From an uncultured Alphaproteobacteria bacterium (GTDB taxonomy: Bacteria; Pseudomonadota; Alphaproteobacteria; Rhizobiales; Xanthobacteraceae), in NCBI GenBank assembly GCA_963778745.1, contig CAVZVP010000007.1:75150-139149 (forward strand): a stretch of DNA of 64,000 nucleotides. Direction: 5' to 3'. A program made the translations under genes and the position numbers. Position 1 is the first letter of the stretch, and each line of letters opens with the position of its first letter. Positions 12,968-18,487 of the stretch are shown piece after piece. The notes beneath the pieces are model-generated. The model had not been told where the DNA came from. It did no database searches and worked only from the letters and a program-made list of their open reading frames with translations.

Positions 12968-13573
12968 ATGGACAAATTCACCACGTTGGAAGGCGTCGCC
13001 GCGCCCTTGAAGATGATCAATGTCGACACCGACATGGTCATCCCCAAGCAATACCTGAAGACCATCAAGCGCACGGGCTTAGGCAAAGGCCTGTTCTCCG
13101 AGCTGCGCTACAAGGACGACGGTAGCGAAAACCCGGATTTTGTGCTCAACAAGCCGGCCTATCGCAAGGCCAAGATTTTGGTCGCCGGCGACAATTTCGG
13201 CTGCGGCTCGAGCCGCGAGCACGCGCCCTGGGCGCTGATGGATTTCGGCATTCGCTGCGTGATCTCGACCGCGTTCGGCGACATTTTCTACAACAACTGC
13301 TTCAAGAACGGCGTTCTGCCGATCCGCGTCAGCCCTGAGGATCTGGAGAAGCTGTTCGACGACGCCGAGCGCGGCTCCAATGCCACGCTCTCGATCGACC
13401 TGGAAAAACAGGAAATCCACGGCCCCGACGGCGGCGTGGTCAAGTTTGAAATCGATTCGCACCGTAAGCACTGCATGCTCAACGGCCTCGACGATATCGG
13501 GTTGACCAAGCAGAAGCAGAGCAAGATCGAAAACTACGAGGACAAAGCCAAAGCGGCGCGGCCGTGGGCGTGA
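12968..13573 (+). CDS. leuD: 3-isopropylmalate dehydratase small subunit
   Basis: Internal ATG 12968 ([14 protein letters not shown]); [17 protein letters not shown] motif. Confidence 0.9.
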
Positions 13574-13899
13574 GGCTCGCGGCGCTCGCGGTTTTGTGCG
13601 CGCTCGCAGCTTAGCCGGCGCTGGCGCAGAAATTCACCGAGGACGGCCTGCGCGAATGCGAGAAGCTCGCCGCGGTCAAGTTCAAGCGGGAAAATCCGGC
13701 GTTCAAAAAGTTCGCGATCGCGCGCGCCGACGTCGAAGAAGACAAGTTCGCCAACAAGGTCGGCACGCAATTCGTCTCCACCGTCTATCACGGCAAGGTG
13801 GTCTATCAGGCCGGCGGCGAACCGGCTGACGTGCGCTTCATCTGCCTGCACGGCGGGCTCGGCAAGGACGCGGTATTTGTCTACACCTTGCCGCGTTGA
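13570..13899 (+). pseudogene. small secreted protein gene interrupted by in-frame TAG inside its signal peptide
   Basis: GTG 13570 overlaps leuD stop (GTGA). Reads [17 protein letters not shown](13612-13614)-PALAQKFTEDGLRECEKL...VFVYTLPR-TGA. No alternative start after the TAG, so absent from the ORF track. Confidence 0.5.
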
Positions 13900-14007
13900 A
13901 CCCCGGAGTTTCTCACGCAACCGTGATGTGAGCCGGACGTTGTCGCGCCGCAAGTTCGCAGTATCGTGAATAGCAACACGAAAAAACGTCAACACGGGAG
14001 GCTTACG

Positions 14008-14754
14008 ATGCCCAAGCATGACTCTGTCGACTGCAACCGCCGCGCAATGCTCGGCGCGGGCGGCGCGCTGATCCTGAGTGCAACGCTGTTGCCGGCGTGG
14101 TCGTTCGCCCAGCCGAGCGGCGGCAAATCGCGCATCGGCATCATCGGCTCGGGCCACATCGGTGGCACGATCGGCGGACTATGGGTTAAGGCGGGGCATC
14201 CGGTGATGTTCTCATCGCGCCATCCCGAGGAGTTGAAGGACATGGTTGCGGGCCTTGGCGCCCTCGCCCAGGCCGGCCCCGTCGACAAGGCCATCGCCTT
14301 CGGCGACGTCGTCTTCATTGCGGTGCCTTATGGCGCGCTGCCGCAGGTCGGCCGCGACAACGCCGCGGCGCTCAAGGGCAGAGTCATGCTCGATGCCTGC
14401 AACGCCACAGCCGCGCGCGACGGCGCGATCGCGGAAGAAGTCGAGCGCGACGGCATCGGCGTCGTTTCGCAGAAATATCTGGCCGGCACGCGGCTCGTGC
14501 GCGGCTTCAACACGATGTCCTATATGACCTTCGCGAAGGAGGCGAACCGCCCCGATCCCAGGCTAGCGATCCCGATCGCCGGCGACGATGCGGAGGCGGT
14601 GCAGGTCGTGAGCGGGTTGGTGCGCGACGCCGGCTTCGATCCCGTCGTGGTCGGCAAGCTGGCGGATGCGAAGCGGTTTCAGCGTGGCGGCCCGGGCTAC
14701 GGCCAGCCGGTGAGCGCGGCGGAGCTTAAGCAGAAACTGAACCTGGCGCCGTGA
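14008..14754 (+). CDS. Tat-signal NADP-binding oxidoreductase (F420-dependent NADP reductase-like Rossmann protein)
   Basis: ATG 14008 after GGGAGG; twin-arginine leader CNRRAMLGAGGALILSATLLPAWSFA, then IGIIGSGHIGGTIG dinucleotide fold. Confidence 0.75.
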   Translation: MPKHDSVDCNRRAMLGAGGALILSATLLPAWSFAQPSGGKSRIGIIGSGHIGGTIGGLWVKAGHPVMFSSRHPEELKDMVAGLGALAQAGPVDKAIAFGDVVFIAVPYGALPQVGRDNAAALKGRVMLDACNATAARDGAIAEEVERDGIGVVSQKYLAGTRLVRGFNTMSYMTFAKEANRPDPRLAIPIAGDDAEAVQVVSGLVRDAGFDPVVVGKLADAKRFQRGGPGYGQPVSAAELKQKLNLAP

Positions 14755-16046
14755 ACTTACTTCGGCGCTGGATCGCGCGAGCGATGCCGGCAACGCCGCA
14801 AGAACGCGCGGCGGCGCTGTGGTCGTTCGCCTATTTCTTCATGCTGCTGGCCAGCTATTACGTGCTGCGGCCGCTGCGCGACCAGATGGGCATCGCCGGC
14901 GGCGTCAAGAACCTGCCATGGCTGTTCACCGCGACCTTCGTGACGCTGCTGGTCGCCCAGCCGCTTTACGGCGCGCTGGTGGCAAAATTGACGCGCGCGC
15001 GGTTCATTCCCATCGTCTATCACTTCTTCGCCGCCAATCTGGCGTTGTTCTGGCTGCTGCTGACGCTTAGCGTCGAGACCGCGATCGTCGCGCGAATATT
15101 CTTTGTCTGGGTGAGCGTGTTCAATTTGTTCGCGGTCGCGGTGTTCTGGTCGTTCATGGCCGACCTGTTCGACGCCGAGCAGGGCAAACGCCTGTTCGGC
15201 TTCATCGGCGCCGGCGGCACGGCCGGCGCGCTACTCGGTCCGGTCATCACGATCGCTTTGTCGGTGCCGCTCGGCCCGACCAATCTGCTGATCGCCGCGA
15301 TTGTCTTGCTCGAAGCTGCGGTATTCTGCGTCTACCGACTCGAGCGCGCGGCCACGGCGCACGCTGGAGCGCCGGCAGCCGAACCGCCAAGGATCGGCGG
15401 CGGCGCGTTCGCCGCGCTGGTCGAAATGTTCCAATCGCCTTATCTGCTCGGCGTCGGCGCGTGGGTCAGCCTGCTGTCGTTCGGCGCGACCATCGTCTAT
15501 TTCGAACAGGCCCACATCATTTCGACCACGGTGCACGGCGCCGGCGCCCAGACGCGAATTTTTGCTAGTATCGATCTCGCGGTGAGCCTGCTGACATTGG
15601 CGACGCAGGTTTTCGCCACCGGCTGGCTGCTCAAGCGCTTCGGCACGGGCATCGCAGCGGGTGCGCTACCGCTGGTCTATGTCGTTGGCTTCGCCGCGCT
15701 GGCCGTGTCGCCGAGCCTAGCCGTCGTCTTGACCCTGCAAGTTGTGCAGCGCTGGATGAATTTCGCCATCGCCAACCCGGCCCGTCAGGTATTCTTCACC
15801 GTGGTGACGCGCGAAGAAAAATACAAAGCCAAGAACCTGATCGACGTCGTGATCTATCGCGGCTCCGACGCGTTGTACGGCTGGGTGTTTGATAGCCTTC
15901 AGTTCTTGGGACTGAAACTGGGCGCCATCGCACTATGCGCGCTGCCGGTGACGGCCGGCTGGCTGGTACTGTCAGCGGCTTTGGGACGGACTCAGGAACG
16001 CCGTGCCGAGCGGCTTGCCGCTACGGTGACAGCGCAGGGAGGCTAA
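14751..16046 (+). CDS. TLC/ATP:ADP-antiporter-like MFS transporter
   Basis: 431 aa, about 12 TM; YYVLRPLRDQ (cf. Y..LR..KD) and FWSFMADLFDAEQGKRLFGFIGAGG (cf. FW.FAN....EAKR.Y) resemble TLC-family signatures; GTGA overlap with upstream gene. Confidence 0.65.
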   Translation: MNLLRRWIARAMPATPQERAAALWSFAYFFMLLASYYVLRPLRDQMGIAGGVKNLPWLFTATFVTLLVAQPLYGALVAKLTRARFIPIVYHFFAANLALFWLLLTLSVETAIVARIFFVWVSVFNLFAVAVFWSFMADLFDAEQGKRLFGFIGAGGTAGALLGPVITIALSVPLGPTNLLIAAIVLLEAAVFCVYRLERAATAHAGAPAAEPPRIGGGAFAALVEMFQSPYLLGVGAWVSLLSFGATIVYFEQAHIISTTVHGAGAQTRIFASIDLAVSLLTLATQVFATGWLLKRFGTGIAAGALPLVYVVGFAALAVSPSLAVVLTLQVVQRWMNFAIANPARQVFFTVVTREEKYKAKNLIDVVIYRGSDALYGWVFDSLQFLGLKLGAIALCALPVTAGWLVLSAALGRTQERRAERLAATVTAQGG

Positions 16047-16047
16047 T

Positions 16048-16941
16048 ATGGCGATTAATATCACGCGGCGAGAATTCGCGGTGTTGGCAGGCTCGGCGCT
16101 GCTGGCGCCGCCCGCGCTCGCCCAAAGCGATGCGCTCGTCACTCGCGCCATTCCGAGCAGCGGCGAACTCCTGCCGGCGGTCGGCCTCGGCACTGCGCAG
16201 GTTTTCGACACCGCCAATGCGGCGACCCGGCGCCAGGCGGCGGAGGTGGTGCAGGCTTTGATCGCGCACGGTGGCCGGCTGATCGACACGGCGTCGACTT
16301 ACGGCGATGCCGAAAGCGTGTTGGGCGACGTCATCGCGCCCGCCGGGCTGCGCGACAAACTTTTTATCGCCAGCAAGGTCGAGCAGCCTGACGCCGCCGA
16401 GCTCAAGCGCTCGCTGGAACGGCTCAAGACCGCAAAGCTCGATTTGCTGCAGCTCCACAATGTGCGCAATTCGCGCCAGTCGCTGGCGCAGTTCAAAGAA
16501 TGGAAGGAAAAGGGAGTGTGCCGCTATATCGGCATCACGTCGACTTTTCACGGCGACTTCGCGGCGCTTGAAGCGGTGCTCGGGCGCGAGAAACCCGATT
16601 TCGTGCAGATCGACTATTCGCTCGACAACCGCATCGCGGAAAAACACATTTTGCCGCTGGCGGCCGAGGTCAAAGCCGGCGTGCTCACCGCCCTCCCCTT
16701 CGGCCGCGCCCGCCTGTTCCAAGCCGTGCGCGGCAAGGAGATTCCCGATTGGGCCAAGGGCTTCGCCGCCAGCTGGGCACAGTTCTTCCTCAAATATTTG
16801 CTGAGCGATCCGCGCGTGACCGCCGTCATTCCCGGCACTGGCAATGCGGCGCACATGACGGACAATCTCGGCGCGATGCGAGGGCCGCTGCCCGACCCCG
16901 ACCAGCGGCGAAAGATGGTCGCCTTCGTCGAGGCGCTCTAG
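16048..16941 (+). CDS. Tat-signal aldo/keto reductase
   Basis: MAINITRREFAVLAGSALLAPPALAQS twin-arginine leader; AKR core (GLGT ... IDTASTYGDAE ... LDLLQLHN); GGAGG RBS inside the end of the transporter gene. Confidence 0.85.
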   Translation: MAINITRREFAVLAGSALLAPPALAQSDALVTRAIPSSGELLPAVGLGTAQVFDTANAATRRQAAEVVQALIAHGGRLIDTASTYGDAESVLGDVIAPAGLRDKLFIASKVEQPDAAELKRSLERLKTAKLDLLQLHNVRNSRQSLAQFKEWKEKGVCRYIGITSTFHGDFAALEAVLGREKPDFVQIDYSLDNRIAEKHILPLAAEVKAGVLTALPFGRARLFQAVRGKEIPDWAKGFAASWAQFFLKYLLSDPRVTAVIPGTGNAAHMTDNLGAMRGPLPDPDQRRKMVAFVEAL

Positions 16942-18487
16942 CCGCTAGAGCAGCGAACTCGGCTTGAGGACGCTGCCCCCGCTGGGTCGTTAGCGCCGGA
17001 GCCCAGGAGAACATCCAGGCCAGGAGATAAAATCCGATCGCCAGCAGATAGAGGAAGGCAAATCCGAAATACATCGGATTGTATTCCATCAAGCCGCCGA
17101 ACAACGCCCCCATCAGATTATATGTGAGCGCGGTGGAGATGTTGATTTTGGCCCGGCTGATCAACGTCGAGAAGACGATCCCCGAGAAGAACAGCGGGAT
17201 GGTCAGCAGCACGCAGCTCACCGTCAGGCTCGTCAAGGGCGAACTGAAAGCGATGAGCGCGTCGTTGCGCGCATAGACATAGCCGACCAGCAGGCTGACC
17301 ATGAGCCCGATATAGGCGAAGCCGGTGCGCTGAAAGACTTTGCGCTGGACGATGAGGTTGGCGAGAAACGCCATCTGCAGAACCATGACGATGGTCGCCG
17401 CGATCACATACCAGGTGCCGCCGAGATGCAGCCCCATTTCGGTGATGGCCTTGGTCTCCACCAGCATGAAGCCGGAACCGAGGAAGAAAAACGGCAGATA
17501 GCCGCGGTCGACCGGTTCGGTTAGGCCGATGGTCTTGCGGAGCAGCAGCGCCAATCCGAGCGCGATCATATAGCTGACCGGATAAGTGCGCTGGATCATG
17601 TAGAAGAACGGCCAGTCGTCGGTCGGGATGCTAGCCTCCGGATAGGACTGCGCGAAATGATCCGAGAGATTCGTGAAACCGAGCGCCGCGAAGCTCGTCG
17701 CGGCCGGCATGATCACGTCGTGGCCCTTCTGCATGAAGGCCGTGGTCATATGCGAGTCATAGAGCACGCGAACCGCCAGCGGCTTTCCGGCGCCCGGCAG
17801 GTCTTGCAGAATGTGCGATAGCTTAAAGCCCAGCGAGTCATTGGGCAGCGCGAAGGCGATGGACAGCACGCCGTCCGGCTTGAGCAACTTGAAGGCTTCC
17901 GCGATCCCCTCGCGCGTATAGACGTAGGAATCCACACGCAGGTTGGAGGCGTGACTGAGCGCGGTGTGGGAATCCAGCACGCCGTAAATGATCAAGTCGT
18001 ATTTCTGCTGCGTGGTACGGAAGAAATTGCGCGCATCGTTGATGGTAAGCGTGACGCGCGGGTCGTCGTAGGGATGCTCGAGATGATAATTCTTGCCGAG
18101 ATAGGCGATGGCCGGATCGATCTCGATCGCATCCACGTGCGACCCGCCCATGCGTAGCGCCGCCGCAGCGTCGTTGCCGCTGCCGGCGCCGACAATCGCG
18201 ACGCGCTCGGGATTTTTCTTGAAATTGAACGGAAATTCATAATAGGCCCGGACATAGCGGTCCTCGTCGGACTCATGTCCGCGCTGGCTCTCCTCCAAAT
18301 TGTAGACCTTTTGATGCTAGTATCCGCCCGACAGGATCTGCATCAGGCCGTCCGGCTTGGCCGTGCGCTCGAGCAATTGATACGGCGAATAAATCCGCTG
18401 AGAAATGTTTGCCGTAATCCGATTGTGCTGCCGCTGCCACTGGCGCGGCTTCGTTATTCGCCGGTAAGCTGACGGCCGAAACACCAT
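16826..18487 (-). pseudogene. spermidine-synthase-like domain fused to C-terminal polytopic membrane domain, interrupted by in-frame TAG
   Basis: Same frame reads MVFRPSAY...SPYQLLERTAKPDGLMQILSGGY-TAG(18317-18319)-HQKVYNLEES...VAIVGAGSGNDAAAAL...; about 7 TM helices follow; 3' end overlaps the convergent AKR gene by 116 nt. Confidence 0.7.

Follow-up and report, generated by a model that had tools for sequence, protein, structure and literature searches.

A conserved three-gene module that places a divergent NTT-like carrier beside oxidoreductases predicted to be exported

We analysed 64,000 nucleotides of DNA from an uncultured alphaproteobacterium of the Xanthobacteraceae (assembly GCA_963778745.1, contig CAVZVP010000007.1, positions 75,150 to 139,149 of the forward strand). 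We refer to this whole stretch as the window, and all coordinates are positions within it unless they follow a locus identifier. Our subject is a set of three tightly packed genes that encode a transporter and, on either side of it, two NAD(P)-type oxidoreductases that we predict to be exported to the periplasm. The source assembly comprises 4.25 Mb and is 94% complete, and the closest database relatives of the genome bear the names Pseudolabrys or Xanthobacteraceae. The features of the module are:

14008..14754, + strand: gene 1, a predicted exported NADP(H)-binding oxidoreductase of the FNO/STEAP fold; its open reading frame (ORF) opens with GTG at 13966
14008..14109, + strand: predicted leader of gene 1, MPKHDSVDCNRRAMLGAGGALILSATLLPAWSFA followed by Q; twin-arginine (RR) codons at 14038-14043; reads NRRAMLGAGG...SFA, then Q
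14751..16046, + strand: gene 2, a 12-helix transporter of the MFS fold, of a divergent TLC/NTT (TC 2.A.12-like) subfamily; GTG start
16037..16042, + strand: Shine-Dalgarno sequence GGGAGG for gene 3, within the end of gene 2
16048..16941, + strand: gene 3, an aldo-keto reductase (AKR), predicted to be exported
16048..16122, + strand: predicted leader of gene 3, MAINITRREFAVLAGSALLAPPALA followed by Q; RR codons at 16066-16071; reads TRREFAVLAG...ALA, then Q

The ORFs run from 13966 to 14754 (gene 1), from 14751 to 16046 (gene 2), and from 16048 to 16941 (gene 3), all on the + strand. Where genes 1 and 2 meet, the start codon GTG (14751-14753) shares two letters with the stop codon TGA (14752-14754), giving GTGA; at the next junction, the GGGAGG at 16037-16042 lies in gene 2 and is followed by the TAA at 16044-16046 and the ATG at 16048. 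An earlier description of this DNA, made from its letters and translations (the sequence-only reading), had reported three co-directional genes with these junctions, and both the ORF coordinates and the codons that we read bear this out. The motifs that it quoted (CNRRAMLGAG, GIIGSGHIGG, YYVLRPLRDQ, FWSFMADLF, and ITRREFAVLAG) are all found in the translations. The more likely start of gene 1 is ATG 14008, which has GGGAGG upstream at 13996-14001, rather than GTG 13966. For gene 2, many database models start at an internal ATG (14784), which gives a protein of 419-420 amino acids. Because the 11 residues before that ATG are conserved, both in the family consensus and in tblastn matches that start at query residue 1, it is plausible that gene 2 starts at the GTG that overlaps the stop codon of gene 1.

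Gene 1 matches PF03807 (F420_oxidored) at 54 bits, and its nearest relatives in the PDB are 4huj, the NADPH domains of STEAP3/4, and FNO. In an alignment of 22 members of its subfamily, the GxGxxG motif is invariant (G10, G12, and G15), while the Ser-Arg motif for the 2'-phosphate, which is of the NADP type, is kept in most members (S33 in 20 of 22 and R34 in 18 of 22). We searched the 94%-complete genome for the F420 biosynthesis genes cofH and cofE and found neither, so it would be a mistake to read the family name's "F420" literally, and we reject the idea that gene 1 encodes an F420-dependent enzyme. Gene 3 matches PF00248 (AKR) at 119 bits, and the catalytic Asp-Tyr-Lys-His tetrad (D45, Y50, K75, and H102) is invariant in a 25-sequence alignment of its subfamily (alignment A2). 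We also considered whether the exported Rossmann and AKR proteins might be catalytically dead binding proteins for an importer, but this is unlikely given the invariant tetrad. As for the physiological substrates of the two enzymes, our guess would be reactive carbonyls or quinones.

Both enzymes have the N-terminal features of substrates of the pathway of twin-arginine translocation (Tat), i.e., an RR motif, a hydrophobic core, and an AxA-type site. To see how far such leaders are conserved, we tallied the enzymes that lie within 400 nt of a related transporter in other genomes (the loci are described below), and we called leaders by regular expression and by eye. Of 72 FNO neighbours, 65 keep an RR with a hydrophobic stretch and an AxA-like site; three of the others are Sec-like and four have no leader. 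The TRR[ED]F...AxA pattern is kept in 66 of 73 AKR neighbours, with two Sec-like leaders and five proteins with none, all five of which lie at the end of a locus so that the N-terminus is cut off. Short-chain dehydrogenases/reductases (SDRs) are less common as neighbours: all six extended SDRs have RR leaders, and the classical SDRs comprise one with RR and one that is Sec-like. The genome encodes TatC (236 bits), and of its 32 ORFs of these types (7 AKR-, 2 FNO-, and 23 SDR-type), genes 1 and 3 are the only ones with RR leaders. The twin-arginine leaders that had been proposed for these two genes are thus conserved in about 130 homologues, and we infer that both proteins are exported to the periplasm via Tat.

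Some partners have Sec-type or lipoprotein leaders (L101, L102, L113, L114, L182, and L192). Such proteins would be unable to bring a pre-bound cofactor across the membrane, and would therefore need an external source of it. Three of these partners are FNO-like proteins from some Methylobacterium and from genus g129 (L101 531-1364, L102 635-1477, and L192 1489-2271), which are of the Sec type with no RR (for example, FSRVAALAALAVVAVTPVMA). Their close relatives have RR leaders, a switch in the predicted export pathway within one orthologue group.

Considered by itself, gene 2 belongs to the MFS: it has 12 helices arranged 6+6, and PF07690 (MFS_1) is its only Pfam match, at 33.9 bits versus a cut-off of 33.4. 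A scan of gene 2 against NCBIfam gave nothing relevant, and a search of PDB sequences with gene 2 alone gave no match at E<=10, although the profile of its family did succeed. The sequence-only reading had likened gene 2 to the TLC nucleotide translocases rather than to ordinary MFS carriers, and it had proposed comparing PF03219 (TLC) with generic MFS models as a check. For gene 2 alone, this check goes the other way, as only MFS_1 passes.

At the level of the family, the resemblance to TLC stands. The family is large (9116 cluster representatives at 50% identity, E<=1e-3), and we aligned 62 full-length relatives that are 36-85% identical to gene 2 (alignment A1). When the members of A1 were scanned singly, 43 of 62 matched PF03219 (E<=0.01; the best at 2.9e-15), and 56 of 62 matched MFS_1. 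When A1 was compared as a profile to the PDB, it matched NTT1 of Chlamydia pneumoniae (9j3n, E=1.2e-21) and AtNTT1 of Arabidopsis (9j3j, 2.7e-17), and the best match that is not an NTT was OxlT at 2e-5. The alignment of A1 to the NTTs runs over the whole length of the protein, and the charged signature motifs pair up: in the first transmembrane helix (TM1), in the stretch 'FW..(D/E)......KR(L/F)', and in 'K.K..ID....R'. The predicted structure points the same way. An AF2 model of gene 2 that was built on A1 has a pLDDT of 94.2, with 12 long helices and a central loop, and when it was compared to the PDB with Foldseek, the two top matches were NTT1 structures (9j3o and 9j3j, with TMq of 0.81 and 0.78 and E=7e-12 and 1e-10, respectively). 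Other MFS proteins were all at E>=1e-7, so NTT1 was about 10^4 better than any of them. In the ESM-Atlas clusters nearest to gene 2, 37-61% of the members have TLC. Databases call members of the family 'AAA family ATP:ADP antiporter' (JGI) or else 'MFS transporter' and 'NTP/NDP exchange transporter' (NCBI and UniRef). Judging from the profiles and the modelled fold, gene 2 is a divergent relative of the NTT/TLC carriers that the Pfam model itself overlooks.

If the three genes work together, then they should be found together in other genomes. We examined 80 loci from species representatives in GTDB (Xanthobacteraceae, Variovorax, Casimicrobiaceae, Rhodoferax, Xenophilus, and others). In 71 of the 80 loci, one or more of the module's enzymes adjoin the transporter: 49 have both FNO and AKR, 11 have FNO only, 2 have FNO and an extended SDR, and 9 have AKR only. 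In the other 9 loci, there is no partner within 1.3 kb of the transporter. The recurrence of the three-gene arrangement is far beyond chance. The order of the genes varies (FNO-T-AKR or T-AKR-FNO, where T is the transporter), and the flanks outside the three genes are not conserved, with the commonest family there, TctC, at just 14 of the 80 loci. We scanned these loci for a catabolic or regulatory gene that is conserved beside the module and found none.

Within the genus, the transporter is patchy (11 of 36 genomes), and where the contig permits, an FNO gene is always adjacent to it. Because the transporter is 77-84% identical between Alphaproteobacteria and Betaproteobacteria (Variovorax and Casimicrobiaceae; loci L014-L075), its sequence points to horizontal spread of the module. 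We also note that the GC content is 0.63-0.67 in the module versus about 0.59-0.60 in its flanks (13500-17000). The module thus has three signs of transfer: raised GC, patchiness within the genus, and high identity of the transporter across classes.

The linkage persists in more distant relatives even as the enzymes change. Transporters at 38-48% identity adjoin other NAD(P) enzymes of the exported type. For example, the transporter in L094 has beside it a pair of extended SDRs (PF01370) that both have RR leaders, and one such SDR lies beside it in L095; an AKR with an RR leader is found in L096 and likewise, by its C-terminus, in L181; and in L182 the neighbour is a classical SDR whose N-terminus has a signal or anchor. 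We asked if one extended-SDR partner (P0275) is akin to CerR/NDUFA9, and a search of the PDB gave only a weak match to a sterol dehydrogenase. In a wider sample of 401 genomes of Pseudomonadota, we inspected the best-scoring transporter loci. The transporter is flanked by AKR-FNO in 5 of 5 Methylobacterium genomes, and elsewhere by AKR alone, by PF00106 SDRs (L106 and L113), by an extended SDR (L103), or by an NmrA/NAD_binding_10 protein with a lipobox (L114). The partners of this transporter clade have at least five folds: FNO, AKR, extended SDR, classical SDR, and NmrA-like. So the synteny, whose conservation had been proposed as a test of the module, does hold across Alpha-, Beta-, and Gammaproteobacteria, and it extends to other exported NAD(P) folds.

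We also built a quick maximum-likelihood tree, which has several long branches and whose topology is indicative only. In this tree, every enzyme-linked transporter falls within one clade of 59 rows (SH-aLRT 96). A partner is present for 51 of these 59, and the partner folds are interleaved, switching repeatedly. The seven outgroup rows have no partner; one subfamily there is flanked by CotH and ManC genes. Our evidence is comparative throughout; the sampling covers Pseudomonadota and a few metagenomic contigs, and related genomes are not independent samples. The partners have in common that they bind NAD(P) and have an export signal; they share neither the fold nor, presumably, the substrate.

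Of the 401 genomes, 37 have the AKR subfamily, 22 have the well-scoring transporter clade, and 15 have both. An FNO with a leader is found in 8 genomes from four lineages (G000, five Methylobacterium, G421, and G119), and all 8 have the transporter. FNO paralogues that lack a leader do occur in genomes without the transporter. It looks as if the transporter is accessory to the exported enzymes, with the exported FNO depending on it and the AKR independent of it.

The periplasm is held by textbooks to be free of nicotinamide cofactors. We propose that the carrier moves NAD(P)(H) between the cytoplasm and the periplasm and thereby serves the exported oxidoreductases, and we would give this a probability of roughly one half. 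The sequence-only reading had suggested a role of this kind for the transporter, and every one of its predictions that could be computed passed, with gene 2 judged by its family; the 22 genomes that keep the Tat-AKR without the transporter (see below) weaken the idea. We favour this explanation because the partners share NAD(P) binding and an export signal and the nearest characterised relatives of the transporter carry nucleotides, and also because partners of the Sec or lipoprotein type cannot bring the cofactor with them and there is no conserved downstream pathway. The FNO/STEAP-fold protein and the AKR would be sent to the periplasm by their twin-arginine leaders, and what the gene 2 carrier moves through the inner membrane would be the nicotinamide dinucleotide itself. 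This would allow the exported enzymes to turn over in a compartment with no other pool of cofactor. By analogy with the NTTs, the most economical form would be a counter-exchange of NADPH going out for NADP+ coming in. By our own reasoning, the inside-negative membrane potential would favour such an exchange of a 4- for a 3- species. Alternatively, NADPH in the periplasm might be harvested inward; we infer both the transported substrate and the direction of transport. The module is a self-contained, horizontally mobile three-gene unit. More tentatively, it is possible that many free-living Proteobacteria (including Methylobacterium, Variovorax, and Xanthobacteraceae) keep a periplasmic pool of NADP(H) by means of a dedicated NADPH/NADP+ exchanger of the NTT family.

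Several results weigh against our proposal. First, PF03219 does not match gene 2 itself, even at E<=10, and to our knowledge, the NTTs that have been characterised all serve parasites or organelles as importers. Second, 8 of the 59 rows in the transporter clade have no exported enzyme within 1.3 kb. Third, our leader calls are regular-expression heuristics, and the Tat-signal hidden Markov models (PF10518 and TIGR01409), which are short and insensitive, do not match genes 1 and 3 at E<=0.1, so the assignment of these proteins to Tat rests on the motif and its conservation. (At another locus, PF10518 scores the partner P0275 at 20.8 bits, which is under the cut-off of 22.7.) Fourth, the AKR subfamily with Tat leaders occurs without the transporter in 22 of 37 genomes. 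In the 20 of these 22 that we inspected, the stand-alone AKRs have no TLC, FNO, or SDR neighbour, and 18 of the 20 have an RR leader by eye, so the AKR can work alone. Finally, most of the partners have Tat leaders, so NADP might be delivered pre-bound, as in GFOR (PMC13673990), and a supply of the cofactor would then be unnecessary.

The last two points are among those that favour a carrier of a substrate or product, which is the alternative that survives best. In this scenario, the reductases would modify an external compound (an aldehyde, a quinone, or a sugar derivative) with a cofactor that is carried along by Tat, and the transporter would import the product or export the precursor rather than carry a nucleotide. 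Operons with a periplasmic enzyme and an MFS importer are commonplace, the Tat leaders of most partners fit a pre-loaded cofactor, the Tat-AKR subfamily does without the transporter in 22 genomes, and gene 2 itself passes only MFS_1. Nevertheless, we consider this scenario less likely than our proposal. The fold of the partner changes while the transporter clade stays constant, and a common cofactor is a more parsimonious explanation for this than a common substrate. Also, no catabolic gene or regulator is conserved downstream; partners of the Sec or lipoprotein type require an outside source of cofactor; and the nearest characterised relatives of the transporter all carry nucleotides.

If the carrier does move a nucleotide, it might be a different one, such as ATP/ADP, FAD/FMN, or another adenine-containing cofactor, either for scavenging of external nucleotides or to supply another cofactor to the periplasm, and the exported Rossmann proteins would then use or bind that molecule. 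The kinship of gene 2 with ATP/ADP and broad-range nucleotide carriers and the database names of its family ('AAA family ATP:ADP antiporter' and 'NTP/NDP exchange transporter') are consistent with this idea, and relatives of the FNO/STEAP fold also contact flavin or deazaflavin. However, AKRs and SDRs are families that use NAD(P)(H) rather than ATP or flavin, the AKR tetrad and the NADP-type S-R motif of FNO are conserved, and genes for F420 biosynthesis were not found in the genome, so another nucleotide seems improbable. That the genes have no functional tie and were merely transferred together on a mobile segment would fit with the patchiness within the genus (11 of 36 genomes), the 77-84% identity between Alpha- and Betaproteobacteria, and the slightly higher GC of the module, but it is very unlikely given the overlapping stop and start codons, the linkage that is kept down to 38% identity of the transporter despite changes in gene order and partner fold, and the transporter's presence in 8 of 8 genomes with exported FNO.

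Returning to the window, leuC, a GFA gene, leuD, and a small ORF lie upstream of the module, and a convergent spermidine-synthase-like gene lies downstream. Between leuD and gene 1, positions 13570-13899 (+ strand) resemble a gene for a small secreted protein but lack a clean ORF. The downstream ORF (PF01564, spermidine-synthase-like or methyltransferase; 16826-18298, - strand) is convergent with gene 3, and the final 116 nt of the AKR gene (16826-16941) overlap with the 3' end of this ORF.

We also encountered relatives of the transporter in other contexts. Genomes of 1.3-3.1 Mb from genus g106 (L120-L126) encode a more distant subfamily (E about 1e-62 to A1), often with two copies per genome. 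In L121, the transporter of this subfamily lies between a CotH-kinase-like gene and a gene for mannose-1-phosphate guanylyltransferase/isomerase, with no exported oxidoreductase near, and the neighbours in L122-L125 are of similar size to those in L121. This subfamily may have a different function, possibly one linked to nucleotide sugars. An exported reductase is likewise absent around P0209 (L183/L184 3001-4317; 40% identical), which overlaps the upstream gene, for a leaderless HAD-family hydrolase, by 4 nt and is followed by a VWA-domain gene. In L115 and L116, a serine beta-lactamase-family protein (PF00144) with an N-terminus like a signal peptide is encoded on the - strand, divergently and upstream of a more distant relative of the transporter. 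Finally, the A1 profile has weak matches inside very long open frames of 890-1175 amino acids (G106:C15:2313-3446, G062:C120:43847-45091, and G428:C4:120141-121139), which may be the NTT-HEAT fusion proteins that were described by Major et al. 2017.

So far, NAD(P)H-type enzymes in the periplasm have been explained by tightly bound NADP, as in GFOR, or have been left as puzzles. If our proposal is correct, then an NADPH/NADP+ exchanger would be a new route for the export of reducing power, beside the DsbD-type and quinol-based routes, and it would account for the turnover outside the cytoplasm of NAD(P)H enzymes that are exported by Sec, by Tat, or as lipoproteins. A 2017 survey reported NTTs from free-living bacteria without assigning them a function, and it did not mention a linkage with exported enzymes (PMC5381601), so this would also be the first function for many of these homologues. 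It might be of use in periplasmic or whole-cell redox biocatalysis as well. The cluster is present in cultured and tractable hosts such as Methylobacterium and Variovorax. The sequence-only reading had suggested that the arrangement is not a described system, and our literature search (on Tat-exported AKRs, periplasmic NAD(P)H, and NADPH export) agrees, as it gave no description of the module. The parts are from known families, while the conserved module and the function that it implies appear to be undescribed.

How does the module compare to known systems? Reportedly, Bfe of Shewanella oneidensis, from the MATE family, is an inner-membrane exporter of FAD and so supplies an adenine dinucleotide cofactor to the periplasm. 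Unlike gene 2, Bfe is from an unrelated transporter family, it handles a flavin rather than a nicotinamide, and its gene does not cluster with those of its client enzymes. Among exported enzymes, GFOR of Zymomonas mobilis is the only NADP example in a 2026 review of Tat export (PMC13673990). Like genes 1 and 3, GFOR is NADP dependent and Tat exported, but its NADP is non-dissociable and is recycled by a ping-pong mechanism, it has no transporter partner, and it has the GFO/IDH/MocA fold instead of AKR or FNO. The ceramide reductase CerR of Caulobacter is periplasmic with a conserved NADH site and poses the same cofactor problem; the paper on CerR expressly names the lack of NADH in the periplasm as a problem still to be solved. 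CerR has no linked transporter, and its authors propose that electrons are transferred from a membrane complex.

The closest known systems are the NTT/TLC carriers (Npt1/NTT1 of Chlamydia, Tlc1 of Rickettsia, and AtNTT1). These are like gene 2 in their 12-helix MFS-type fold, their full-length profile homology, and their charged motifs, and they work by counter-exchange, which is what we propose, by analogy, for gene 2. On the other hand, they are only about 15% identical to gene 2 and are longer (about 500 amino acids versus about 430). PamNTT4 of Protochlamydia amoebophila and CtNpt1 of C. trachomatis are members of the NTT family that, as cited in the 2017 survey, have been shown to carry NAD (PMC5381601). 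They show that a dinucleotide can be a substrate in this family and can be exchanged for an adenine nucleotide, but they import the NAD+ of the host into the parasite, whereas gene 2 would move a cell's own NADP(H) between its cytoplasm and its periplasm. More broadly, the known carriers belong to parasites and organelles, while the family of gene 2 is found in free-living Proteobacteria of the soil and phyllosphere and is linked to exported oxidoreductases.

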